Shown one piece after another: positions 568 through 11,574 of a stretch of DNA of 11,574 bases. Numbering within the stretch: position 1 is the stretch's first letter; each line of letters opens with the position of its first letter. The notes below the pieces were generated by a model. The model was not told the origin of the DNA and made no database searches. It saw only the letters and a list, made by a program, of their open reading frames with translations. Origin of the DNA: Bdellovibrionales bacterium. Its GTDB lineage: Bacteria; Bdellovibrionota; Bdellovibrionia; Bdellovibrionales; UBA840. The DNA lies in NCBI GenBank assembly GCA_037969075.1, contig JBBKWS010000169.1, positions 1 to 11,574 of the forward strand, read 5' to 3'. Position numbers and translations under genes: made by a program.

Positions 568-1107
568 CTAAATATCAAACGGTGCGCTAAGAGATAACAT
601 CAAACCTTTTTCTTTTACATTACTTACGCTAACATCGTTTAGCTTGTCGTATTTACCAGAAAAGTATTCGACGTTAATGTCGATAATGGGTAAAACCGTA
701 ATACCCAAACCTAATTTGTAGCCAGTGCCATCTTCGGCTTTATATTTATAACCACTGCCGCTAGGTTCGTAATCTGCTTGATAATACCCAGCCCAAGCAC
801 GAAGAGGCGCGATGGGTATATCCATTCCGGCAGTCACTCCTGTTCTCGTCATAGTTCCTTCAAGCTTTACGTTTACTCCACCTTCAGGCTCCCATGAGAG
901 GTCTCCGGTTGAGTAGTCTAGAGCAATAAAAAATGTGGATGCAAAGGTGAAACCAACTCTTCCACCAATCATCGGACCCTTTGCAGCGGTACCATCGTTT
1001 CCGCTTTCAATGGCAGTGATGTTATAGCCAAGGTAAGGCTCTAAAAGTAAGCCGGCACTGGCATTTGACGCTGAGAAAAATAGGATTAAACCAAGAATAC
1101 GTTTCAT
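568..1107 (-). CDS. Outer-membrane beta-barrel protein (probably small 8-stranded type), 179 aa
   Basis: The start is moved to MKRILG (ATG 1107, GGAGG-tttt-ATG). A signal peptide ends in ASA. Alternating beta-strand patterns occur throughout (LLLEPYLGY, GGRVGFTF, GYKLGLGITVLPIIDINVEY), with C-terminal strand LMLSLSAPFDI. Confidence 0.85.
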   Translation of the reverse strand: MKRILGLILFFSASNASAGLLLEPYLGYNITAIESGNDGTAAKGPMIGGRVGFTFASTFFIALDYSTGDLSWEPEGGVNVKLEGTMTRTGVTAGMDIPIAPLRAWAGYYQADYEPSGSGYKYKAEDGTGYKLGLGITVLPIIDINVEYFSGKYDKLNDVSVSNVKEKGLMLSLSAPFDI

Positions 1108-1126
1108 AAAACCTCCGTACCATATT

Positions 1127-1155
1127 AGAATGGCCGTATATATACGAAATTGCAA
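1127..1155 (-). promoter_or_regulatory. Putative sigma70 promoter of the beta-barrel gene with a 12-bp palindrome in the spacer
   Basis: The minus strand reads TTGCAA (1155-1150)-N17-CATTCT (1132-1127). The perfect palindrome CGTATATATACG lies at 1135-1146. Confidence 0.4.
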
Positions 1156-1169
1156 GGATAAGAAAGGTT

Positions 1170-1198
1170 TTGTAACCAATAGCTGTATAGGCTAAAAT
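1170..1198 (+). promoter_or_regulatory. Putative sigma70 promoter of the BI-1/YccA gene
   Basis: TTGTAA (1170-1175)-N17-TAAAAT (1193-1198). A second TATAAT lies at 1205-1210, and SD AAGGAG precedes ATG 1231. Confidence 0.45.
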
Positions 1199-1230
1199 TT
1201 TTCTTATAATAAGACGATAAAGGAGAATCT

Positions 1231-1974
1231 ATGCGTTCAGGAAATCCAGCTTTACGAGAAAATGTGTTTCAAAACGAGAGACAGAAATCACTAGCTAGTG
1301 CTGAAAAGATGACTATCGCAGGCACAACAAATAAAACTGCTATACTATTGGTAATTACATTTTTAGCAGCGGGCTATATGTGGAATTACATCCAGCAAAA
1401 TCCAACGGCCATTGTACCGGCATACTTATTTGGGAGTGCAATAGCAGCGTTTGTACTTAGTCTTGTAATTATCTTTAAAAAAACAACGGCTCCTTATTTA
1501 GCCCCTGTTTACTGTGTGCTTGAGGGGGTATTCTTAGGAAGTATTTCTTTATTTATGGAGCAAAAGTATCCTGGTATAGTTACTCAGGCAATTGTAGCTA
1601 CGTTTGGCGTACTTGCAGGATTACTTGTGGCCTATAAGACCCAGCTAATTAAAGTAACTGAAAACTTTAAATTAGGTGTTTTTGCCGCTACGGCAGGAAT
1701 TGCATTTATATATTTAGCTTCTTTTATCGCGGGTTTCTTTGGTGTGCAGGTTCCTGTTCTACACGAGTCCTCTCCCATGGGAATTGGCATTAGTGTTGTG
1801 ATTGTGATTGTAGCGGCCCTAAACCTTGTTTTAGATTTTGATTTTATTGAAAACGGCGAAAAAATTGGGGCTCCTAAGTATATGGAGTGGTATGCAGCCT
1901 TTGGTTTGTTGATCACATTGATCTGGCTGTACTTAGAGCTTCTTAGACTCTTAGCGAAAATCAAGGATCGCTAG
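1231..1974 (+). CDS. Bax inhibitor-1/YccA family integral membrane protein
   Basis: About 7 hydrophobic segments, N-terminal MRSGNPAL and C-terminal LVLDFDFIE...GAPKYMEWYAAFGLLITLIWLYLELLRLL, all typical of the bacterial BaxI_1 family. Good SD. Confidence 0.92.
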   Translation: MRSGNPALRENVFQNERQKSLASAEKMTIAGTTNKTAILLVITFLAAGYMWNYIQQNPTAIVPAYLFGSAIAAFVLSLVIIFKKTTAPYLAPVYCVLEGVFLGSISLFMEQKYPGIVTQAIVATFGVLAGLLVAYKTQLIKVTENFKLGVFAATAGIAFIYLASFIAGFFGVQVPVLHESSPMGIGISVVIVIVAALNLVLDFDFIENGEKIGAPKYMEWYAAFGLLITLIWLYLELLRLLAKIKDR

Positions 1975-1978
1975 GCTT

Positions 1979-2007
1979 TTGACAAAGTGGTTTTGCGGTG
2001 CTGTAGT
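1979..2007 (+). promoter_or_regulatory. Putative sigma70 promoter of the 2033 gene
   Basis: Perfect TTGACA (1979-1984)-N17-TGTAGT (2002-2007). Confidence 0.4.
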
Positions 2008-2032
2008 AATGACAAATATATAAGGGGGTCTA

Positions 2033-2482
2033 ATGAAGTCTATTTTTATCGGTCTAATGTTACTGTCGTTTAATGTGTTTGCTGATGGTGTTGAAATGGT
2101 TGAGCAAGAGTCTACGTTTACATACAGCAGTAATCGTGCATATTACGCTTGTAGTTATGCAGAGGCTCAAACTAAAAAATACATCCAACAAATGGGTGGA
2201 GAAGTTGTAAAAGTTCGCTGCTCTGGTGGTTTTCCAGATTCACCATTTGTAACGGTAAATATGCATTTTACTAACTTTAAAGCGTCTAACAGTGCTGATG
2301 CAATGACTAGCGAGTGGATGGTAGTGAAAATTCGTGGTAATGAGTCTTGCGAATTTAACAAGAAGTTAGTTGAACACTTACTTCCGCAATTTGAGACTAG
2401 AAATTTACAAGCCAGAGAGTTCTGTAATGTATCAGAAGGCAGATATCAGTACGCATTTGAATCATTAGTTGCTGCTGAATAA
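2033..2482 (+). CDS. Secreted hypothetical protein, 149 aa, four Cys (probably disulfide-bonded)
   Basis: SD AAGGGGG, signal peptide MKSIFIGLMLLSFNVFA, motif YYACSYAE...VRCSGG, and a terminator downstream. Confidence 0.8.
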   Translation: MKSIFIGLMLLSFNVFADGVEMVEQESTFTYSSNRAYYACSYAEAQTKKYIQQMGGEVVKVRCSGGFPDSPFVTVNMHFTNFKASNSADAMTSEWMVVKIRGNESCEFNKKLVEHLLPQFETRNLQAREFCNVSEGRYQYAFESLVAAE

Positions 2483-2502
2483 TAGTAGTATTTACCATAT
2501 CT

Positions 2503-2532
2503 AGCGGGCCCTAGTGGCCCGTTTTCTATTTT
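2503..2532 (+). terminator. Rho-independent terminator
   Basis: Hairpin AGCGGGCC-ctagt-GGCCCGTT followed by TTCTATTTT, about 20 nt after the stop at 2482. Confidence 0.8.
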
Positions 2533-2564
2533 ATCGCTCTATATACGAAAAACAAGAATCCTTA

Positions 2565-2594
2565 TTGTCTTTTTAGTCACTAGTATTTTATAGT
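2565..2594 (+). promoter_or_regulatory. Putative sigma70 promoter placing the transcription start at the ATG (leaderless)
   Basis: TTGTCT (2565-2570)-N18-TATAGT (2589-2594)-N6-ATG (2601). No SD is present. Confidence 0.45.
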
Positions 2595-2600
2595 AGATCT

Positions 2601-3626
2601 ATGGTAGCCAATCTTATTGTAAAAAACTATTTACGTCTTCGCAGCGCTCTATACTTAGCAGAATCATTGCCGGTCATTAATCTGCAGAAATGGGTTTCAG
2701 ACTCATTTAGTACTTACAAGGTGAGTGCTAAAGAACTGAAAACTCTTGAAGTTGAAGTTGAAAAGCTTTTTGCTGAGGACGCAAAAAATTTTTCTACAGG
2801 TGTTTATCCCATTGAGCTATTAAAACCTGAGTCAGTAGTAAAACACACAAAACGATTTGCCGGTATATTAGCGGATAATATATTTGTGACCTGGAGAAAA
2901 CGTGGAAAACAAAATAAAAAGTTTTCTAAAGTAGCATCTAGAGATTTAATGGCGGTTCCAGAATACTACCGTCGTAACTTTCATTTTCAGACGGATGGAT
3001 ACTTATCTAAGGATTCTGCAGAAATGTATGATCATCAGGTTGAAATTTTATTTAAAGGTACTTCACACTCAATGCGTAGAATGATTGTGCCGCAGCTGAA
3101 AAAATATACTGATAACGAAGATTTACAAATTTTAGAACTCGCTTCTGGAACAGGAAACGCAACCAGGGCTCTAGCTGCTAGTTTTAAGCGGGCCTCTATT
3201 ACTTGTGTGGACTTAAGTGATGCCTATCTAAAAAAAGCGCAAGACGAATTAAAGCAGTATAAAAATATAAATTTTTTGCGAGCCAAAGCTGAGGATCTAC
3301 CTTTTAAGGATGCTAGTTTTGATGTAACCGCTAGCATATTTTTGTTTCATGAGGTGCCAGAAGTTATTCGTAAAGAAATCATATTAGAGGCGAAGCGAGT
3401 GCTTAAGCCAGGTGGTCTGTTTGTTTTTATGGATTCATTGCAACTAAAAGATAATCCTAATTTAGATTGGGCTCTTTTAGACTTTCCAAAAAACTTTCAT
3501 GAACCTTTTTATAAAAACTATGTGTCTAACCCAATTGAGAGTACATTTACAGAATGTGGCTTTGAAGTTTTAGGGGTTAAAAATACTTTTTTATCAAAAG
3601 TTGTTGTCGCCAAAAAGGTAGATTAA
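2601..3626 (+). CDS. Class I SAM-dependent methyltransferase (UbiE/Methyltransf_11-like domain with N-terminal extension)
   Basis: Motif I ILELASGTG, post-I CVDLS, motif II AEDLPFKDASFD, then FLFHE and RVLKPGG. It also has the PEYYRRNFHFQTDGYLS...YDHQVEILF segment of a widespread subfamily. The substrate is unknown. Confidence 0.9.
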   Translation: MVANLIVKNYLRLRSALYLAESLPVINLQKWVSDSFSTYKVSAKELKTLEVEVEKLFAEDAKNFSTGVYPIELLKPESVVKHTKRFAGILADNIFVTWRKRGKQNKKFSKVASRDLMAVPEYYRRNFHFQTDGYLSKDSAEMYDHQVEILFKGTSHSMRRMIVPQLKKYTDNEDLQILELASGTGNATRALAASFKRASITCVDLSDAYLKKAQDELKQYKNINFLRAKAEDLPFKDASFDVTASIFLFHEVPEVIRKEIILEAKRVLKPGGLFVFMDSLQLKDNPNLDWALLDFPKNFHEPFYKNYVSNPIESTFTECGFEVLGVKNTFLSKVVVAKKVD

Positions 3627-3629
3627 GAT

Positions 3630-4571
3630 TTATGGCTGAAAGCCATTTGTAACACCTTTGGTGTTAATGCTAACGGCATTATGTGGATGCAAACTTTCTT
3701 TATGGTCTACTTGTAACCAAAAATCAGTAACACTGTCTTCGTTATCTAAAGCTGCATGTAATTTTCTGGCAGCATCTTCGCAAAACATCAGGTTGCTTGC
3801 GTTTAGACGAGCGAATTCTTGTTCATCTTCACGTTTTACTGCGGTTTGCACAGGAGTGCCTAGGCTATTCTCAAGTAGATCGATGAATTTAACAAAGTCA
3901 AAATTTTCAACGTCGTTATCTAGGCGAAGTTTTACCTTAGCCTCACTTCTTTGCGAATGAGGAGTGGCTACAATATTTTTACTTTTTCCAAGCCATTCAT
4001 AAACTTCATTCACATCAATTTTTTTATCTTTAAATTCACCTTTAAAATGTTCTTGAATTAGCTGTCTAGATAGAGCCGCAGAGCATGGACAAGTGCTTGA
4101 GTATAAAACTTCAAGTCCAATAGAAATATTAAATTTCCCGTTTTCTATCTTACTGTCAACTTCAACAGGATAAGATCTCCATCCGGCATAATCACTAAGT
4201 AGAGCTGGACGAAGCACTAAAAGTTCAAATTTTAAACGAAGTTGGGCGCTAGTACTTAGATCTTTGTGAGAGGATATAAAATGTGTTAATATTTTTTTAA
4301 TGAGTTTAGTGTCTAGAGTATTTTTTTCGAAGCTATCTTGTGCCTCTAAAAATAATCTAGACATATGAATGCCTTTGGCTTTTGCGTCTGCCAAGTTAAC
4401 AAACATATCTGCGCGTGCGGACACGGTAAGTTTTTGCTGATTTACTAAGACATGCAAAGGAAGTTCGACCTGAGTCATTCCAACTCGGTCCAACGGAATT
4501 GCTAAGTCGCCTTTTATGGACTCAGCTACATCGGGTAATTGTTTTTTGGTTTTTGTCTCAGTCGTAAGCAT
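3630..4571 (-). CDS. folE2: GTP cyclohydrolase IB (FolE2)
   Basis: Family motifs KGIHMSRL, YSSTCPCSAALSRQL, ATPHSQRS, TAVKREDEQEFA...NLMFCEDAAR and HKESLHPHNA. Confidence 0.95.
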   Translation of the reverse strand: MLTTETKTKKQLPDVAESIKGDLAIPLDRVGMTQVELPLHVLVNQQKLTVSARADMFVNLADAKAKGIHMSRLFLEAQDSFEKNTLDTKLIKKILTHFISSHKDLSTSAQLRLKFELLVLRPALLSDYAGWRSYPVEVDSKIENGKFNISIGLEVLYSSTCPCSAALSRQLIQEHFKGEFKDKKIDVNEVYEWLGKSKNIVATPHSQRSEAKVKLRLDNDVENFDFVKFIDLLENSLGTPVQTAVKREDEQEFARLNASNLMFCEDAARKLHAALDNEDSVTDFWLQVDHKESLHPHNAVSINTKGVTNGFQP

Positions 4572-4687
4572 ATATCCCTTTAACCTCAGGGCCTACGTGT
4601 ACCTTAAAAAGGCTCATTTACCAAGTATTTTAATCCTAAGAGTGTACATAAGAAAATAGGGGTGGGTGGCTTAACATATTGAAATTA

Positions 4688-5473
4688 TTAGTCTATGTTT
4701 TTAACCAAAGTACTCACGGTTTGATAAGCTGCAAAGAAACCAAAGCTTGCAGTTATGTAACTGGCAGTACCATAGCCAGTAGCACAATCAAGCGGTCCTG
4801 CGATGTCGCTGTTTGCCTCACAGGCCTCTGGTAAATGGGGTAGTTCAGTCGAATAAATCGCCATCATGCCAAACTTTGCTTTTTTTCCTCGGGGGAATTG
4901 ATATTTTTGTCGTAAATACTTTCTTAGCTTTTGAAGTAATGGGTCGCTAATAGTTTTGCCTAAATCATCGATAGTGATTTTGGTAGGGTCCATTTTTCCA
5001 CCAGCTCCACCTGTAATTACTATGGGTACATCTTTGTCTCGGCAGACCTTTACCAGTAAAGCCTTAGCGCTTAAAGCATCTATAGCATCTATGACCACAT
5101 CGTATTTTGTTTCAAAAATACTCTCAACATTGTCGGATGAAAAGAACTCTTCAATAGTTATAACTTTACAATCAGGATTAATATCAATCAGTCGATCTTT
5201 TAAAACCTTAGCTTTAGCTTTTCCAACAGTAGAGGTTAGGGCATGTAACTGACGATTTGTATTTGTGATACATACTTCATCGTAATCTACTAGTGTGATA
5301 GTACCCACGCCAGAGCGAACCAAAGATTCGGCAGCCCAAGATCCGATACCGCCAATACCTACAATCAGTATATGAGATTTTTTTAAACGATCAAGTGCTT
5401 CATTGCCTAAGAGGCGCTGAATTCCCGAGAATCGGTTTTTTTGAATAAGGGTGTCTGCGTCTGTCTTTTTCAT
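4688..5473 (-). CDS. tcdA: tRNA threonylcarbamoyladenosine dehydratase (ThiF/E1-like; TcdA/CsdL)
   Basis: RFSGIQRLLG, GIGGIGSWAAESLVRSGVG, DEVCITNTNRQLHA, GGAGGKMDPT, DPLLQKLRKYLR and LDCATGYGTASYITASFG. Confidence 0.9.
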   Translation of the reverse strand: MKKTDADTLIQKNRFSGIQRLLGNEALDRLKKSHILIVGIGGIGSWAAESLVRSGVGTITLVDYDEVCITNTNRQLHALTSTVGKAKAKVLKDRLIDINPDCKVITIEEFFSSDNVESIFETKYDVVIDAIDALSAKALLVKVCRDKDVPIVITGGAGGKMDPTKITIDDLGKTISDPLLQKLRKYLRQKYQFPRGKKAKFGMMAIYSTELPHLPEACEANSDIAGPLDCATGYGTASYITASFGFFAAYQTVSTLVKNID

Positions 5474-5547
5474 GAGTAGAAGTATTATGGATTACATTGT
5501 GAACTTGTATTTGAAAAGCTTTTTTATCATTAATTGAGATCAAACGT

Positions 5548-5576
5548 AAAACGGCCACTGTAAGGTGGCCGCTTTT
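5548..5576 (-). terminator. Rho-independent terminator of the lipoprotein gene (potentially bidirectional)
   Basis: AAAA-CGGCCACT-gtaa-GGTGGCCG-c-TTTT, a GC-rich hairpin with T-runs on both strands, about 20 nt after the stop at 5596. Confidence 0.8.
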
Positions 5577-5595
5577 AAAGGTCTGTAGTTTTAGA

Positions 5596-6297
5596 TTAAA
5601 ATCGACTAATGTTCTCTAAGTTAGTTTTAAAAGTACCTAACTCATAACGTCTTAAGCTATGAAGTTCGGTCAATGTTTTATCAATAACTTTAATTGATAC
5701 CGTCCATTCGTTCATTGCAGCATCTGTTTTTGTCAGCTCTAATGACAAAGTATCTTTTTCAAATTCAAAGTCAGCAAATACCTTAGCTCCAACAATAGCC
5801 CCTGTTAGTTCAAATATTTCAGTAGTGCCATCACCTCGAACGCTAGTTGAAATCGCATTTTTTGAATCAAAATGGTAAGTCTTATCGATTTCATGAATAG
5901 TAACGTTTAGTAAGAATTCTGCATTGTTTCCGATGATGTCATGTAGCTTGAATTTTGCAGTAGCTATCTCGTATACAGGACCTGTAAAGGTATCTGTAAA
6001 ACAGCTTAAATCTACACCGTATTGATTTAACAGAGATTGTGTTGATCTAAGAAGTGTAACGGACTTATCTGTCTGAGCTTGTAAGCTAAGATCTCCAGCA
6101 TCTACTAATAGTGATGGTGCAAGTGCGCACACGTCAACAGAAGCCGCTGATCCACCGCCAGATGGTGTTGGTTCAGAAAAGGTTGGTTGGCCGCTAGCCT
6201 TAGGCTTAATGGCTTCTAGTTCGCTACAGGCGATAAAGCCAGAAAGGGATAGTAAAATAACACTTGTATGTATAATTCGGTTCATTAGTTTTTCCAT
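5596..6297 (-). CDS. Hypothetical lipoprotein, 233 aa
   Basis: SD AAGGAG. Signal peptide with lipobox FIAC, followed by a P/S/G-rich linker (SGQPTFSEPTPSGGGS) and a beta-rich C-terminal domain. No family recognised. Confidence 0.8.
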   Translation of the reverse strand: MEKLMNRIIHTSVILLSLSGFIACSELEAIKPKASGQPTFSEPTPSGGGSAASVDVCALAPSLLVDAGDLSLQAQTDKSVTLLRSTQSLLNQYGVDLSCFTDTFTGPVYEIATAKFKLHDIIGNNAEFLLNVTIHEIDKTYHFDSKNAISTSVRGDGTTEIFELTGAIVGAKVFADFEFEKDTLSLELTKTDAAMNEWTVSIKVIDKTLTELHSLRRYELGTFKTNLENISRF

Positions 6298-6322
6298 ATG
6301 TTCTCCTTAACGTATTACTAAT

Positions 6323-6339
6323 AAGCAGTCTTTGTGCCA
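6323..6339 (-). promoter_or_regulatory. Sigma54 (RpoN) -24/-12 promoter of the lipoprotein gene
   Basis: The minus strand reads TGGCAC-AAAGA-CTGCTT, with exact GG-N10-GC spacing and a close match to TGGCAC-N5-TTGCW. It lies about 25 nt upstream of the start codon in the correct orientation. Confidence 0.75.
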
Positions 6340-6386
6340 CGTCTACAGCGACTCTGTTTGATTTGAAGAGGGGGACCTTTTACAGG

Positions 6387-6403
6387 GCGACAAATTCTGT
6401 CAC
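6387..6403. promoter_or_regulatory. Dyad, candidate enhancer-binding-protein site
   Basis: GCGACA-AATTC-TGTCAC, about 75-90 bp upstream of the predicted sigma54 start site and abutting the -35 of the divergent gene. Confidence 0.35.
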
Positions 6404-6432
6404 TTGCCATTAGGTCAAAGCTGCTAAATACT
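6404..6432 (+). promoter_or_regulatory. Putative sigma70 promoter, probable leaderless transcript of the hydrolase
   Basis: TTGCCA (6404-6409)-N17-AATACT (6427-6432)-N7-ATG (6440). No SD is present. Confidence 0.4.
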
Positions 6433-6439
6433 AGTGTGT

Positions 6440-7252
6440 ATGAAAAAATTATTGCTCTTGCCCACTTTGCTCTTAGTCGCCTGTGCCCATATACCTCCTA
6501 ATTTTGATGTTCATAAGGACCTGGTTTATAATACTAGCCCTGAGACGCTTCAGGGTGACCTGTATTTACCTAAGAAGGCACAAATGGCACCTCTTGTGGT
6601 AACCATTCATGGTGGAGGTTGGACAGGCCGAACAAGAGCTGACATGAATGATGTGGCCACAGAACTAGCTAGTCAGGGATTTGCGGTTTTTAATATAAGC
6701 TACAGACTTGCTCCTAAACATAGGTTTCCAGCGCAAATAAAAGATATTAGAGCGGCTCTTAGATATTTAGAGCAGCATAAAACTGAATATAGATATGATA
6801 TAAATAAGGTCGCACTTTTTGGCTATTCTGCAGGGGCACATTTAGCCGCTTTAGTTGGAATGGCAGATGATCTAGAAGTAGGAAAAGCTGATACCGTAAA
6901 GATCAAGGCTGTAGTTGCTGGCGGAACACCTGCGGATTTAACAAAATATGAAAACTCTGAATCTGTTGTTAAATTTATGGGCGGCACCTATAAACAGATG
7001 CCCGACGCGTACAAAAAGGCTTCTCCTATATTTTATGTGAACAAAGGGGATCCGCCTATCTTTTTATATCATGGTACGAATGATTGGGTGGTTGAGTACC
7101 AACAGATGTTAGATTTTAAGCGTAGACTTGAAGAAGAAGGGGTGGGGGTTGAGACTTTTACAATACCTATTCTTGGCCACATAGCGATTTTTTTGTATTC
7201 GGATACTTCGGTTGATAAATCCATTGTATTTTTAAAAGAACAACTAAAATAA
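6440..7252 (+). CDS. Alpha/beta-hydrolase (HSL-like carboxylesterase/lipase), predicted lipoprotein
   Basis: The start is taken at ATG 6440 (MKKLLLLPTLLLVAC, lipobox LVAC). It has oxyanion motif HGGGW, YRLAP, nucleophile GYSAG, acid HGTNDWVV and catalytic GH. Confidence 0.9.
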   Translation: MKKLLLLPTLLLVACAHIPPNFDVHKDLVYNTSPETLQGDLYLPKKAQMAPLVVTIHGGGWTGRTRADMNDVATELASQGFAVFNISYRLAPKHRFPAQIKDIRAALRYLEQHKTEYRYDINKVALFGYSAGAHLAALVGMADDLEVGKADTVKIKAVVAGGTPADLTKYENSESVVKFMGGTYKQMPDAYKKASPIFYVNKGDPPIFLYHGTNDWVVEYQQMLDFKRRLEEEGVGVETFTIPILGHIAIFLYSDTSVDKSIVFLKEQLK

Positions 7253-7264
7253 AAAACCGCCATC

Positions 7265-7314
7265 TTATATAACTAAGTTTTATAAAAGCATCGATTTCTG
7301 CTCACTTGAGCAGA
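7265..7314. repeat. Two adjacent inverted repeats (operator-like dyad and hairpin/terminator-like palindrome)
   Basis: TTATA-T-AACT-A-AGTT-T-TATAA (7265-7285) and TCTGCTCA-CT-TGAGCAGA (7297-7314). TATAAT lies at 7353-7358. Confidence 0.5.
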
Positions 7315-7436
7315 TTCCTTGATCACTCATAAGTAGCCTCACTGATTTACCATATAATAAAGACAGGATTTTTGTAATAAGCTGTTCTGCCTTTAGGCTT
7401 ACCAGTAGTTTCACTTCTTTTAGTGTAGGAGATTAC

Positions 7437-8786
7437 ATGCAGGCATTACGCAAAGATTTAGGTTTATTTTCGGCGTTTAGTATAGTGGTAGGGATAGTTA
7501 TTGGATCAGGTGTATTTGTGAAACCCGCAATTGTTCTGATGCAAACACAATCCGTAAAGGTTTCGCTACTAGCTTGGCTTGTTGGTGGCTTAATTACACT
7601 AGCAAGTGGTTTGACTGTGGCAGAAGTAGCAGCACGTATTCCTAAAACCGGTGGTGTGTTTATCTACATGAAAGAGATTTACGGCGATAGGCTGGCATTT
7701 ACCGCGGGTTGGATTTTTACCTTGATCTATGGGCCCGGGTTGATGGGAGCATTATCACTATACTTTGCTTTTCTTGTGACGGGATTTTTTCAGATAAGTT
7801 CTCAGTATATAATTTTCATCGCATTATTGGCATTAGGTTTTTTAACTACGGTAAATATTGTGGGTACCAGATATGGTGGCCTAGTACAGAGAGTCTCAAC
7901 AGTTATTAAATTTGTACCTATATTAATGATCAGTGTGTTTGGATTACTATATGGAAATGTAGGAGATAATGTTTTTTTGTCTACTGCGACTACTGTAGGT
8001 AAAGATTTTACTTTTGCTAGTTTTGGCGTGGCAATATTAGCGACCCTTTGGGCCTATGATGGCTGGATTCTAGTTGGTAACGTGGCAGGAGAATTAAAAG
8101 ATGCTAGTAAAACTTTGCCTAAGGCTATAGTTGGCGGTTTATTAATTGTGATCTTAGCTTACCTTGTAATTAACGTAGCTTTGTTTGCACTTTTACCGAT
8201 TGAAGTAATACAGCAAAATAGTTCTAACATTTCGCTCTTTGCAGCTGAAAAGTTATTTGGAGCCTATGGTGGAAAAATAGTTAGCTTAGGTATTATTATT
8301 TCGATTTTTGGCTGTCTAAACGGAAGTATTCTTGCCTCTCCTAGAATCCCGTATGCCATTGCTAACACCGGAAAATATCCAAGGCTTCAGTTTTTGACTA
8401 GATTGCATTCAAAATCTGCCACCCCAATTGCAGCTATCTTGTTGCAAGTACTTGTGGCCACAGCAATGATTTTATTTGCTAACCCAGATGTCCTTACAGA
8501 TCTGGCTTTATTTAGTGTATATGGCTTTTATGTGCTGGTGATGATTGGTCTGCGTAGCCTACGAAAATCCAATCCGACATTTGTTGGTTATAAGACACCG
8601 CTATACCCACTAGTTCCAATGATCGCAATTATCGGAACCATCTATATATTAGGAAGTGTTATTTTAGAAAAGCCTGTACTAAGCGGTCTATCAATTGTTT
8701 GCTGCGTGTTAGGATATTTGTTATATCCTCTATTACGGCAGGACGAGCGAGCCAATACGTCTTATGTGGAACAAAAAAAGGTATAA
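7437..8786 (+). CDS. APC superfamily amino-acid permease, LAT family (SteT/YkbA-like exchanger)
   Basis: SD AGGAG and about 12 TM segments. Motifs VIGSGVFVKP (TM1), IPKTGG, IYGPG, WAYDGW (TM6), SIFGCLNG (TM8) and YKTPLYP closely parallel B. subtilis SteT as I recall it. Confidence 0.92.
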   Translation: MQALRKDLGLFSAFSIVVGIVIGSGVFVKPAIVLMQTQSVKVSLLAWLVGGLITLASGLTVAEVAARIPKTGGVFIYMKEIYGDRLAFTAGWIFTLIYGPGLMGALSLYFAFLVTGFFQISSQYIIFIALLALGFLTTVNIVGTRYGGLVQRVSTVIKFVPILMISVFGLLYGNVGDNVFLSTATTVGKDFTFASFGVAILATLWAYDGWILVGNVAGELKDASKTLPKAIVGGLLIVILAYLVINVALFALLPIEVIQQNSSNISLFAAEKLFGAYGGKIVSLGIIISIFGCLNGSILASPRIPYAIANTGKYPRLQFLTRLHSKSATPIAAILLQVLVATAMILFANPDVLTDLALFSVYGFYVLVMIGLRSLRKSNPTFVGYKTPLYPLVPMIAIIGTIYILGSVILEKPVLSGLSIVCCVLGYLLYPLLRQDERANTSYVEQKKV

Positions 8787-8863: not shown

Positions 8864-9274
8864 ATGAAACTAAAACTCACTGCAGGTTGTTTATTGTTGT
8901 CTTTCATTTGTTCAAACGCACTTGCACAATTTGATGGACCTTGCTTGGCTATCTACAGAACAAACAAAGACTTCATTTCATCGGCACTAGAAGAAAGCGA
9001 AAAAATCTATGTTAATCGTGTTGAACTTAAGAGAAGCGGATCAAAAGGTGTTGTGACCATTTCATCTGATGATACAGTTGAAAAGTTTAATGTTGAACAG
9101 CAGTGTAATGGAAGTGTGAAAGCTGAGCTTGTAGAATCACAGGCCGTGTTTGTTTGTAAAGAAGTAATTGATTGTATGCCCAATGCACCGGATAGAGACG
9201 CTAAGTATTGTTCGCAACGATATGTTGAATGGACCAGTGAGAACTGTGACAAAGAAGTTATAGTTATACATTAA
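8864..9274 (+). CDS. Secreted hypothetical protein, 136 aa, six Cys in the mature part
   Basis: SD AAGGAG, signal peptide ending ALA, and a C-terminal Cys cluster CKEVIDCMP...YC...W...NC. Confidence 0.8.
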   Translation: MKLKLTAGCLLLSFICSNALAQFDGPCLAIYRTNKDFISSALEESEKIYVNRVELKRSGSKGVVTISSDDTVEKFNVEQQCNGSVKAELVESQAVFVCKEVIDCMPNAPDRDAKYCSQRYVEWTSENCDKEVIVIH

Positions 9275-9309: not shown

Positions 9310-10941
9310 TTAAGTAGAGGCAGCTAGTTGCGATTTTTTCTCTACGTAATAGTTCCAATCACCATCATAGATAACGAGTTGATTTTTATCTAACTCGAAA
9401 ACCTTGGTAGTAAACTCACTTAAAAAATGTCTGTCGTGACTTACTATCATCACCGTACCATCGTAAGTTTTAATGGCTTCAAGTAATACCTCACGAGAGG
9501 CGATGTCTAAATGGTTGGTAGGTTCATCTAAGATAAGTAGGTTAGTAGGGCGGGCTAGAATTTTCGCTAATACCACACGGCTCTTTTCTCCGCCAGATAA
9601 TATAGATACACGTTTGTCGGCTTCATCTCCTGAAAATTTTAAACATCCCAATAAACTTCTTAAGTAACCATTGCTTGCTTGCGGCAGACTGGCCTGCACT
9701 TCTTCAAGTACGGTATTGGCAGGATTTAAAACATCCAATGCGTTTTGACTAAAGTAGCCAATCTCTGTGCTGGCCCCAATTGTAATATTACCTGAAGTTT
9801 CTTCTGTGTGACCTGCTATGATTTTTAAAAGAGTGGATTTACCTGCACCGTTGACCCCGACAACTGCTACTCGGTCCAAGCGTCTAACAAGGGCCGAAGC
9901 GCCAGAGAAAACCAAAGTTTCTTTTTTGTCATTAGACGAGTATATTTTTTTAAGATCTTCAAAAACAACCACATCATTACCGCCTCTAGGTGATTTAGGC
10001 CATTCAAACTTGATGGCCTGCTCTTCCGTAGGGACTTCGATTCGATCAATCTTTTCTAATTTTTTAACTCTTGATTGTACTTGTGCCGCGTGAGAGGCAC
10101 GGGCAGCGAATCTTGCGATAAACTCTTCTTCTTTAGCCAGCATATCATCTTGGCGTTTTGCCGCAGCAATCAATTGTTCTTTTCGAATTTCTCTCTCTTT
10201 TTCGTAAAAATCGTAGTTGCCGCCATATGTTGTTATAGATTTGTTGGCGACTTCAAAGATTTTATTTACAAGCCGGTTCATAAAATAGCGATCATGGCTT
10301 GTCATTAATAGTGCGCCCTTATAATTTTTTATCCACTCTTCTAGCCAAACAATGGATTCTAAATCTAGATGGTTGGTGGGCTCATCCATTAAAAGTACGT
10401 CAGGATTTAGAGTTAAGATTTTGGCAAGGGCGATTCGCATTTTCCAGCCGCCACTAAAAGTAGAAGTGTCACGGTGATGGTCTTCGGGCATGATACGAAG
10501 GCCCGTTAATATTTCTGCAGCTCTTGCGTCTAAATCATAGCCACCCAGACGCTCGAATTCAGTTTGCAGTTCTCCGTAGACTTCAAGAGTCTTCGTCATT
10601 TCATCTTCGCTCATTGGTTCGGCTAATTTTTGTTCTAATTGTAAAAGCTGGTTTTGCAGACCCGTGACTTTGCCAGCTGCGGATTTAACTTCTTCTAAAA
10701 CGGTGCGACCTCCCATTTCTTCGATTTTTTGGGAGAAGTATCCAATCACACACTTGTCAGGTTTAGATACGGTCCCTTCATCAGGACGCTCTTCTGCTAA
10801 AATTAATTTAAAGAGTGTGGTTTTGCCATTGCCGTTGGGCCCAACTAAACCGATCTTTTCACCTGTATTTAGTTGGATGCTTGCATTTTTATATAAAATC
10901 TTTGGGCCGTAATGTTTGGATATATTAGATAAGTGAATCAT
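9310..10941 (-). CDS. ABC-F family ribosome-associated ATPase (YheS/YdiF-like)
   Basis: Two nucleotide-binding domains without TM segments: GPNGNGKTT/FSGGWKMR/DEPTNHLD/SHDRYF and GVNGAGKST/LSGGEKSR/DEPTNHLD/SHDRHF. The linker reads FIARFAARASHAAQVQSRVKKLEKI. Confidence 0.95.
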   Translation of the reverse strand: MIHLSNISKHYGPKILYKNASIQLNTGEKIGLVGPNGNGKTTLFKLILAEERPDEGTVSKPDKCVIGYFSQKIEEMGGRTVLEEVKSAAGKVTGLQNQLLQLEQKLAEPMSEDEMTKTLEVYGELQTEFERLGGYDLDARAAEILTGLRIMPEDHHRDTSTFSGGWKMRIALAKILTLNPDVLLMDEPTNHLDLESIVWLEEWIKNYKGALLMTSHDRYFMNRLVNKIFEVANKSITTYGGNYDFYEKEREIRKEQLIAAAKRQDDMLAKEEEFIARFAARASHAAQVQSRVKKLEKIDRIEVPTEEQAIKFEWPKSPRGGNDVVVFEDLKKIYSSNDKKETLVFSGASALVRRLDRVAVVGVNGAGKSTLLKIIAGHTEETSGNITIGASTEIGYFSQNALDVLNPANTVLEEVQASLPQASNGYLRSLLGCLKFSGDEADKRVSILSGGEKSRVVLAKILARPTNLLILDEPTNHLDIASREVLLEAIKTYDGTVMIVSHDRHFLSEFTTKVFELDKNQLVIYDGDWNYYVEKKSQLAAST

Positions 10942-10981: not shown

Positions 10982-11446
10982 TTACATGCTATCTACTTCT
11001 CTAACTAGTTCGGGTATACGCTCTAGCTGCATTTTTCCTTGTCGGATCATATCTACAGCCTGTGCTTGAGTGATTTTGTTAGCAGCTATCTTATTACACA
11101 GTTTTGATTCTAGTGGATCAGTGATTTTGTAGACGTTCTTTTCTTGCGGCCATAAATTATCGATTTCATTGCTGCCGCCCATACAAAGAGGGATGTAATG
11201 ATCTATTTTGTAACTACTTCTGCGATGACCTACGGTAAAATCGTATTCATCTTCATATACTTCAATAATATCTGCTTTTAAACTAGAGCTTACGCTTCGC
11301 TCACAATAAGGAATTCTTTCGTTATATCTAAACTCGGTGGGCGTAGTACAAAGACTGCCTGGAGTTAAGTGTTGATCGGGGTGTATTGGGTATGAGCCTA
11401 ATACACTTGCGAAGCTAATAGCTAGACTAACAATAAATAAAGACAT
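10982..11446 (-). CDS. HNH-motif (His-Me finger) nuclease-like protein with N-terminal signal/anchor, 154 aa
   Basis: GGAGG-acga-ATG, hydrophobic N-terminus MSLFIVSLAISFASVLG, PDQHLTPGSLC, and HNH core YKIDHYIPLCMGGSNEIDNLWPQ. It has four Cys, not arranged as CxxC pairs. Confidence 0.8.
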   Translation of the reverse strand: MSLFIVSLAISFASVLGSYPIHPDQHLTPGSLCTTPTEFRYNERIPYCERSVSSSLKADIIEVYEDEYDFTVGHRRSSYKIDHYIPLCMGGSNEIDNLWPQEKNVYKITDPLESKLCNKIAANKITQAQAVDMIRQGKMQLERIPELVREVDSM

Positions 11447-11453
11447 TCGTCCT

Positions 11454-11518
11454 CCAAATAGTCCGGCATTTATGGCGCCGGGTAGAAACGCTGGCCCGTA
11501 TTGCCAGCTTATACTTGG
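11454..11518 (-). ncRNA. Purine riboswitch aptamer, guanine-type (C74)
   Basis: Minus strand: P1 CCAAGUA / J1-2 UAA / P2 GCUGGC / L2 AAUACGG / P2' GCCAGC / J2-3 GUUUCUAC / P3 CCGGCG / L3 CCAUAAA / P3' UGCCGG / J3-1 AC / P1' UAUUUGG. Every junction and loop has the length and core nucleotides of the xpt-type purine aptamer. Confidence 0.93.
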
Positions 11519-11527
11519 TACTCTTAT

Positions 11528-11556
11528 GGTCTACCGAGCTTATTTAAGTTTTGCAA
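11528..11556 (-). promoter_or_regulatory. Putative sigma70 promoter of the riboswitch-HNH transcript
   Basis: The minus strand reads TTGCAA (11556-11551)-N17-TAGACC (11533-11528). The predicted start near 11521 is only a few nt before P1. Confidence 0.55.
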
Positions 11557-11574
11557 TGAAAAAATTATAGGCTA

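Follow-up and report, generated by a model that had tools for sequence, protein, structure and literature searches.

A guanine-class riboswitch upstream of a putative exported HNH-like nuclease gene and of unrelated nuclease-type genes in Bdellovibrionota

Results

A purine riboswitch lies directly upstream of an HNH-like gene

The window (the whole 11,574-nt stretch of DNA analysed, one complete contig) encodes on its minus strand a 154-aa protein (ORF 11446-10982) with the hydrophobic N-terminus and the motifs DHYIPLCMGGSN and NLWP that the original prediction had described. The lone Rfam match in the entire window, and the sole RF00167 match in the source genome, is a full-length Purine riboswitch immediately upstream of this gene (cmscan, 11536-11439, minus strand). 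It scores 62.9 bits with an E of 2.5e-9, where the gathering score is 37, which confirms the complete aptamer predicted there. Only 38 nt of contig remain on the upstream side of the Rfam match, up to window position 11574; the entry for the HNH-like protein in the protein collection lies on a contig of 26,776 nt. Coordinates of all features are given in Table 1.

Table 1 Features of the riboswitch and HNH-like gene locus, in window coordinates
Feature	Position	Strand	Basis or remark
ABC-F ATPase gene 40 nt past the HNH-like gene, with possible read-through	9310..10941	-	Pfam; no minus-strand terminator between
154-aa HNH-like (His-Me finger) protein gene, N-terminal hydrophobic segment, Bd2091 orthologue	10982..11446	-	homologues, invariant residues
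Small predicted hairpin, Shine-Dalgarno paired with first codons, abuts P1	11439..11453	-	RNAfold
Shine-Dalgarno GGAGG; its first two G also end the 3' strand of P1	11451..11455	-	sequence
Purine riboswitch aptamer, guanine-I pocket	11454..11518	-	RF00167 62.9 bits, covariation, invariant pocket
Aptamer P1	11518-11512 / 11460-11454	-	
Aptamer J1/2	starts at U22 = 11511	-	
Aptamer P2, 6 bp	11508-11503 / 11495-11490	-	
Aptamer L2, GG at its end	11502-11496	-	
Aptamer J2/3 GUUUCUAC, 8 nt; U47 = 11488, U51 = 11484	11489-11482	-	
Aptamer P3	11481-11476 / 11468-11463	-	
Aptamer L3, CC at its start	11475-11469	-	
Aptamer C74	11461	-	
-10-like hexamer, weak, poor consensus match (inferred), 17 nt after -35	11528..11533	-	
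-35-like hexamer TTGCAA of probable promoter (inferred)	11551..11556	-	43 nt upstream of U20

The ABC-F gene that follows is probably not part of the module, given that such a gene is found after the HNH-like homologue in 2 of the best 80 of 352 loci. The remaining neighbours (568-8786) comprise an outer-membrane beta-barrel protein, a Bax-inhibitor-1-like protein, a methyltransferase, folE2 GTP cyclohydrolase, a ThiF-family protein, a BD-FAE esterase and an amino-acid permease; the window ORFs 2033-2482, 5596-6297 and 8864-9274 matched no Pfam family.

The aptamer carries a guanine-I pocket

The pocket positions named for the guanine class, U22, U47, U51 and C74 (PMC9295807, PMC10556655, PMC6847200), are present in the window aptamer and in 58/58 homologue aptamers, which upholds the class originally assigned. 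The L2 GG and L3 CC bases were likewise found as predicted and are invariant in the same 58 aptamers, as is the A21-U75 pair. Related classes could be ruled out base by base. The adenine riboswitch needs U74, where all 58 homologues have C74; the 8-oxoguanine riboswitch is defined by loss of U47, which is kept in all 58; 2'-dG-I has C at the equivalents of 22, 51 and 74, in contrast to U22 and U51 here; and guanine-II and xanthine-II are incompatible with an 8-nt J2/3 lacking any insertion, the latter also needing U51G. The 2'-dG-II riboswitch shares its scaffold with the window aptamer and is defined by C51, two extra nucleotides in J3/1 and G-C as the P1 pair nearest the junction (PMC6847200), all absent from an RNA with U51, a 2-nt J3/1 and A21-U75. 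By every sequence test applied, the window RNA is a member of the guanine-I class.

The aptamer is conserved with the HNH-like gene

Genome contigs yielded 352 confirmed relatives, of which the best 80 served as homologue loci; their leaders were scanned with a model derived from 25 Bdellovibrionota aptamers, the window's own included. An aptamer lies directly upstream of the gene in 58 of these best 80 of 352 loci, so the pairing proposed from the single locus is kept among its relatives. Rfam, which is independent of the phylum model, confirmed an aptamer at 18/18 positives tested and at 0/22 negatives. The other 22 homologues lack an aptamer, 11 of them coming from records titled Bacteriovoracaceae or kin, and the HNH-like gene thus does not require it. 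Across the 56 distinct homologue aptamers, in an alignment fitted to the riboswitch model and so biased towards it, 93% of cells are paired and 16/19 pairs show two-sided changes, versus 28-37% pairing in slid-partner controls (the kin compared are not independent). The aptamer is thus real, and selection acts on its structure.

Records titled Oligoflexus/Oligoflexales carry the module too, and we therefore speak of prey or environmental nucleic acid as the possible substrate. One assembly holds two HNH-like paralogues, one with and one without the aptamer (L046, L068). Two records titled Streptomyces griseus and Nitrosovibrio (L050, L082) carry the Bdellovibrionota-type gene and aptamer, and are probably mislabelled or mis-binned.

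The downstream protein is a small, putatively exported nuclease-like protein

A total of 256 homologues were retained from 272 candidates, with those bearing names all belonging to Bdellovibrionota and the nearest named one sharing 80% identity with the window protein. A profile search of 50%-identity representatives returned 2472 sequences at E<=0.001 and 72 at 1e-30. Residues D82, H83, N93, N97, D110 and E113 are invariant in 118 aligned homologues, as are R40, R50, R76 and the four cysteines C33, C48, C88 and C117. An HNH-type D-H dyad followed by GG-N and N-L motifs is thus conserved throughout these 118. When the set is widened to 151 representatives including remote ones, D82 is found in 150, H83 in 149, N97 in 148, E113 in 141 and D110 in 85. 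We take H83 to be the general base, D82 with D110/E113 to form the metal site and the cysteines to form disulfides, by comparison with His-Me finger chemistry.

The matches to known families are all weak or below cut-off, and we therefore use the name HNH-like. Pfam HNH_5 scores 16 bits on the window protein against a cut-off of 27.5, and is matched at E<=0.1 in 112/118 members (best 1e-4, again sub-threshold). The structure model (pLDDT 93) contains a strand-strand-helix core (strands 79-83 and 98-102, helix 103-121), a candidate beta-beta-alpha-metal fold. Foldseek gave Cas8f-HNH as best match at a weak E of 0.078; in the VIA comparison the best match (Z 4.1) is an unrelated helical protein, with two HNH domains next at Z 4.0, the HNH-domain matches having an rmsd of 3.6-4.4 over 72-77 residues and NucA-type nucleases following at Z 3.0-3.4. 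Together, the top fold and profile matches are HNH_5, HNH, Endonuclea_NS_2, GVE2 HNH, Cas8f-HNH, Serratia NucA and Sda1. A sequence search of solved structures gave nothing significant (best HNH match E 0.8), Pfam and NCBIfam hold no family of its own for the 154-aa protein, with nothing relevant from NCBIfam, and atlas clusters were unnamed Bdellovibrionota ones plus one with HNH on 11% of members. The protein resembles HNH/His-Me finger nucleases in its DH...GG.N...NL motif, and differs from them in being a stand-alone 154-aa protein with a signal-like N-terminus, four Cys and D/E at the expected helix metal-ligand place.

A hydrophobic N-terminal 10-mer is present in 111/113 Met-starting members versus 2/118 in mature regions, and K/R precedes the hydrophobic stretch in 94/113 relatives. 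The window protein itself has a strong h-region (KD 2.66) but no K/R before it, making it an atypical signal peptide. We conclude that the HNH-like protein is small, probably exported and nuclease-like. A phage origin was rejected, as tblastn gave no match for the protein in 50,697 phage records.

Related riboswitches precede unrelated exported nuclease-type genes

RF00167 was found in 24/151 genomes drawn across Bdellovibrionota, with 33 matches in total and an identical tally from the phylum-built model; the HNH-like gene is present in 54/151. Both this survey and the homologues bear out the Bdellovibrionota context that had been proposed. The genes following the 33 aptamers are 21 HNH-like (20 by family profile, 1 by position directly before a family match), 7 endonuclease I (2 by Pfam, 5 by sequence likeness), 3 EEP, 1 PD-(D/E)xK-like and 1 EamA. 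The EEP proteins could be either nucleases or phosphatases, and the PD-(D/E)xK-like protein is signal-bearing, has no Pfam match and gives weak NERD/PD-(D/E)XK leads.

In the family of genome G136, 98/121 genomes carry 1-4 aptamer copies. We examined 87 loci from this family, 27 of them returned automatically and 60 picked so as to favour multi-copy genomes; 24 further matches lie outside the 87, and some loci are shared with the set of 80 homologues. Here the following genes are 41 HNH-like, 23 endonuclease I, 11 PD-(D/E)xK-like, 8 DUF3465-like (Pfam on 5, 3 above cut-off and 2 below; 3 by eye), 2 EEP and 2 EamA. No pur, xpt, pbu or gua gene follows an aptamer at any of the 33 phylum-sample or 87 G136-family loci. 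The association with exported nuclease-type genes put forward for the single locus hence extends to four unrelated families across the phylum. Judged by gene order, what fronts several unrelated, putatively exported nuclease-type genes in Bdellovibrionota is the same predicted switch, and its targets are not those of purine synthesis. The placement of the aptamer on such genes suggests that nucleic-acid digestion is lowered once purine is sufficient.

Such gene contexts raise the question of the ligand. The regulon and its OFF logic could be the same while the RNA is a hidden specificity variant sensing a nucleoside or another purine (guanosine, 2'-dG or xanthine), since guanine-I riboswitches do not typically accompany such genes, and unusual gene contexts have earlier predicted changed ligands (PMC9295807, PMC10556655). 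The lineage also has features of its own, namely a 6-bp P2, A or U at position 73 (40/18) and A or U at position 24 (42/16). Against this, the first-shell bases are all of guanine-I type in 58/58 aptamers and A21-U75 is kept; there is no U51C and no J3/1 or J2/3 insertion, whereas each validated variant changes these elements; and the 2007 purine alignment shows a 6-bp P2 for Lactobacillus and Enterococcus as well (PMC2258182). We therefore regard a changed ligand as unlikely, and retain guanine-I recognition as the preferred assignment.

Bdellovibrio bacteriovorus HD100 carries two of these loci

The 2007 purine alignment lists, with organism, taxonomy and sequence, two HD100 rows, NC_005363.1/3414604-3414703 and 2004933-2004835 (PMC2258182). 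Gene coordinates place Bd3507 at 3414695-3415564 and Bd2091 at 2004362-2004841 (PMC3627812), so that each HD100 aptamer ends on a start codon, that of Bd3507 or of Bd2091. The protein of one homologue locus (L028) has the same sequence as a named B. bacteriovorus record and falls in the HNH-like family at E 4e-71, which identifies Bd2091 as the orthologue of the window protein. Primer E040, from work on the bd3507 leader (PMC7925074), covers, as reverse complement, the 3' end of the aptamer, the Shine-Dalgarno and the start codon, and matches our loci L002, L003 and L005 exactly; the published plasmid pEBF11 fuses this leader to mCherry (PMC7925074).

Bd3507 is an endonuclease I that shares with the window protein a riboswitch placed on the Shine-Dalgarno, and has a signal peptide, growth-phase expression and secretion into the bdelloplast (PMC7925074); it differs in belonging to another family (PF04231) and in its length of 289 aa. 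A Bd3507-mCherry fusion was secreted into both bdelloplast and supernatant, and the bd0934 bd3507 double mutant had raised DNase activity with no clear transcriptional cause, for which increased translation or an unidentified nuclease was suggested (PMC7925074). The words 'riboswitch' and 'purine' do not occur in the main text of that paper, and Bd2091 is absent from its exported-DNase table and from the main text of PMC3593177. A literature search with the name Bd2091 gave, among the matches listed, only chemistry.

By reported RPKM values, Bd2091 goes from 10.7 in the attack phase to 335 after 3 h of growth, and its growth-phase induction is given as 26-fold. In the proteomic data of PMC12546842, Bd2091 (5 peptides) reaches log2 2.14 at 2 h and is below its starting level by 5 h, and Bd3507 peaks at 3-4 h. 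This timing fits feedback, without proving it.

These observations bear on a second alternative, in which the switch is real and the HNH-like protein, rather than acting as a feeding nuclease, is a periplasmic nucleic-acid-binding protein, a weakly active one, or a defence against incoming DNA. The family and fold matches are indeed all sub-threshold, D110 is present in 85/151 remote representatives, and the regulon also includes DUF3465 proteins, which have no assigned function. Yet D82, H83 and N97 are each kept in 148-150/151 of those representatives and E113 in 141; the gene is predicted to be co-regulated with endonuclease I and EEP proteins; the timing of Bd2091, as far as reported, matches prey digestion; guanine repression makes no sense for a defence gene; and the phage records hold no match. 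We consider such a non-feeding role improbable, slightly more so than a changed ligand, and a nuclease acting on outside nucleic acid remains the preferred reading.

P1 overlaps the Shine-Dalgarno sequence

The overlap of P1 with the Shine-Dalgarno (Table 1) is a feature absent from the original prediction. Given this arrangement, P1 formation would act as a translational OFF switch, and the platform looks like direct Shine-Dalgarno sequestration rather than a terminator. A terminator platform was rejected: none is found on the minus strand, and the sole terminator-like match is P2 read on the plus strand. In the window the start codon lies 14 nt past C74, and in 51/51 parsed homologue loci (7/58 failed the parser) it lies 11-18 nt after C74. 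An SD-like motif starts within P1, counted generously, in 43/51 parsed homologues.

The leader also appears to be short. The -35/-10-like pair above the aptamer was not called by a consensus promoter scan of the window. TTG(C/A) recurs 42-48 nt upstream of U20, a distance range picked after viewing the leader data, in 31/57 distinct homologue leaders, against a mean of 3.9 and a maximum of 11 in 1000 shuffles. Its recurrence at a similar distance points to a probable promoter just upstream of the aptamer, and the leader of ~75 nt would then be made almost wholly of aptamer. RNA contigs (no reads) are divided, 2/4 ending within the aptamer at different points (L028 1557 and 1567) and 2/4 running through it. 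The sole TSS table of PMC3627812, which covers attack-phase genes, has no row for Bd2091.

Folding calculations give a less simple picture. RNAfold predicts the hairpin over the Shine-Dalgarno of the window copy both with and without P1, and a similar hairpin with changed pairs is possible by eye in the closest relative, L031 (n = 2). By nearest-neighbour folding, the cost of opening the ribosome footprint has a median of 7.85 versus 6.95 kcal/mol, the share of P1 being small; a P1-related drop of >1 kcal/mol is seen in 15/58 aptamers, and the window copy gives 6.8 versus 5.8. As the folding models omit ligand and tertiary energy, this result speaks neither for nor against switching.

Some purine riboswitches turn translation ON, for example Vibrio add. 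Control other than a simple OFF switch, whether a ligand-independent hairpin, a start freed by ligand (ON, for disposal of excess nucleic acid) or mRNA decay, would draw on that precedent, on the predicted hairpin over the Shine-Dalgarno and first codons in both states and on the weak computed P1 effect, but it is the least probable of the three alternatives. P1 keeps its pairing even as its 3' strand remains SD-like, the 11-18 nt from C74 to the start leave no room for a separate anti-SD platform, and a ribosome binding site inside the P1 3' side is a described direct-attenuation design of SAM-I (PMC2258182).

Discussion

Proposed feedback control of a putative exported nuclease

We consider it likely that a guanine-I riboswitch represses translation of a putative Sec-exported HNH-like nuclease, which would be one member of a Bdellovibrionota regulon for digestion of outside nucleic acid. 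A promoter just upstream, suggested by the conserved -35 element, would produce an mRNA with little other than aptamer in its leader. When guanine or hypoxanthine is plentiful, the ligand would lock the three-way junction and P1; as the Shine-Dalgarno begins in the P1 3' strand, and this strand falls under the ribosome footprint, initiation would be blocked, the geometry being visible in the RNA and the switching presumed from it. When purines are low, P1 would open and the protein would be made and exported, as the family-wide hydrophobic N-termini suggest, with disulfides. Nucleic acid would then be cut at a putative D82-H83...N97...D110/E113 metal site, and the salvaged purine would shut the gene off again, as end-product feedback.

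The original prediction was of a starvation-triggered scavenging system. The link between the purine switch and a nuclease-type gene is supported, and product feedback on ongoing digestion fits better than an emergency response to starvation, because the genome has a pur cluster and expression of the orthologue rises as the predator grows within its prey. The cluster in question (C26:1236-6698, L111) comprises the de novo genes purF-purE-purC-purD-purN and a purL-like start, so that scavenging of nucleic acid is not obligatory, and purine auxotrophy as the driver was accordingly rejected. The role would be feedback tuning, not auxotrophy. No RF00167 purine riboswitch was found at the pur cluster of the source genome. 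Across the phylum, GARS_A is above cut-off in 132/151 genomes, a loose measure which also catches other ATP-grasp enzymes.

A known riboswitch class with a probable new regulatory role

The window switch shares with the guanine-I riboswitch of B. subtilis xpt type the three-stem junction, the L2-L3 kissing bases, the U22/U47/U51/C74 pocket and the predicted OFF logic (PMC9295807). It differs in its exported nuclease-type targets, as opposed to purine synthesis, salvage or uptake, in having the Shine-Dalgarno in P1 instead of a terminator platform, and in its Bdellovibrionota host. This is a known riboswitch class in a new regulon and regulatory role. Weinberg and co-workers reportedly associated 2'-dG-II riboswitches with exported nucleases in 2017. 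The literature searched holds no paper tying a purine riboswitch to Bdellovibrio nucleases, though Singh and Sengupta 2012, Weinberg 2017 or riboswitch supplements may list such contexts.

A broader and more tentative reading, which we hold as possible rather than probable, is that the guanine riboswitch was repurposed in Bdellovibrionota as a master feedback control of extracellular nucleic-acid digestion, with one aptamer recruited to at least four unrelated putative exported nuclease folds (HNH-like, endonuclease I, EEP and PD-(D/E)xK-like) as well as to DUF3465 and EamA genes. If so, Bd2091 would be the translationally de-repressed DNase behind the raised activity of the bd0934 bd3507 mutant reported in PMC7925074, giving a testable account of an unexplained phenotype, and the DUF3465 and PD-(D/E)xK-like proteins would be exported nucleic-acid-processing proteins. 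A well-studied riboswitch class would gain a different job, the rationing of exported hydrolases rather than biosynthesis or uptake, and the predator a molecular sensor for metering the digestion of prey nucleic acid. Bd2091 is an overlooked candidate nuclease, missing from published Bdellovibrio secreted-nuclease lists (PMC7925074, PMC3593177), and three uncharacterised protein families acquire candidate roles through regulon membership.

Variant loci

Signal-bearing DUF3465 (PF11948) proteins are found under the riboswitch at L119:955-1410, L149:1131-1610, L178:189-641, L143, L160, L137, L196 and L202, which hints that they process nucleic acid from outside. At L137, L143 and L160, a Shine-Dalgarno and TTG are present at the usual distance and the DUF3465 gene begins another 110-200 nt downstream, a layout possibly reflecting a leader peptide with translational coupling. 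The PD-(D/E)xK-like proteins (L112:1283-1882, L122, L134, L146 and others; 11/87 loci) form an unnamed, signal-bearing family of ~190 aa with a GELD...EVKCW signature and only weak NERD-type matches; a weak homologue is encoded in the source genome (contig C178) without a riboswitch. The EamA transporter genes (L026:1630-2625, L186 and L189) have a longer spacer of 40-51 nt and no Shine-Dalgarno in P1, which makes them candidates for purine or nucleoside transport under another type of platform. Upstream of two endonuclease I genes (L183 and L184), the P2/L2 region is enlarged to 33 nt instead of 19.
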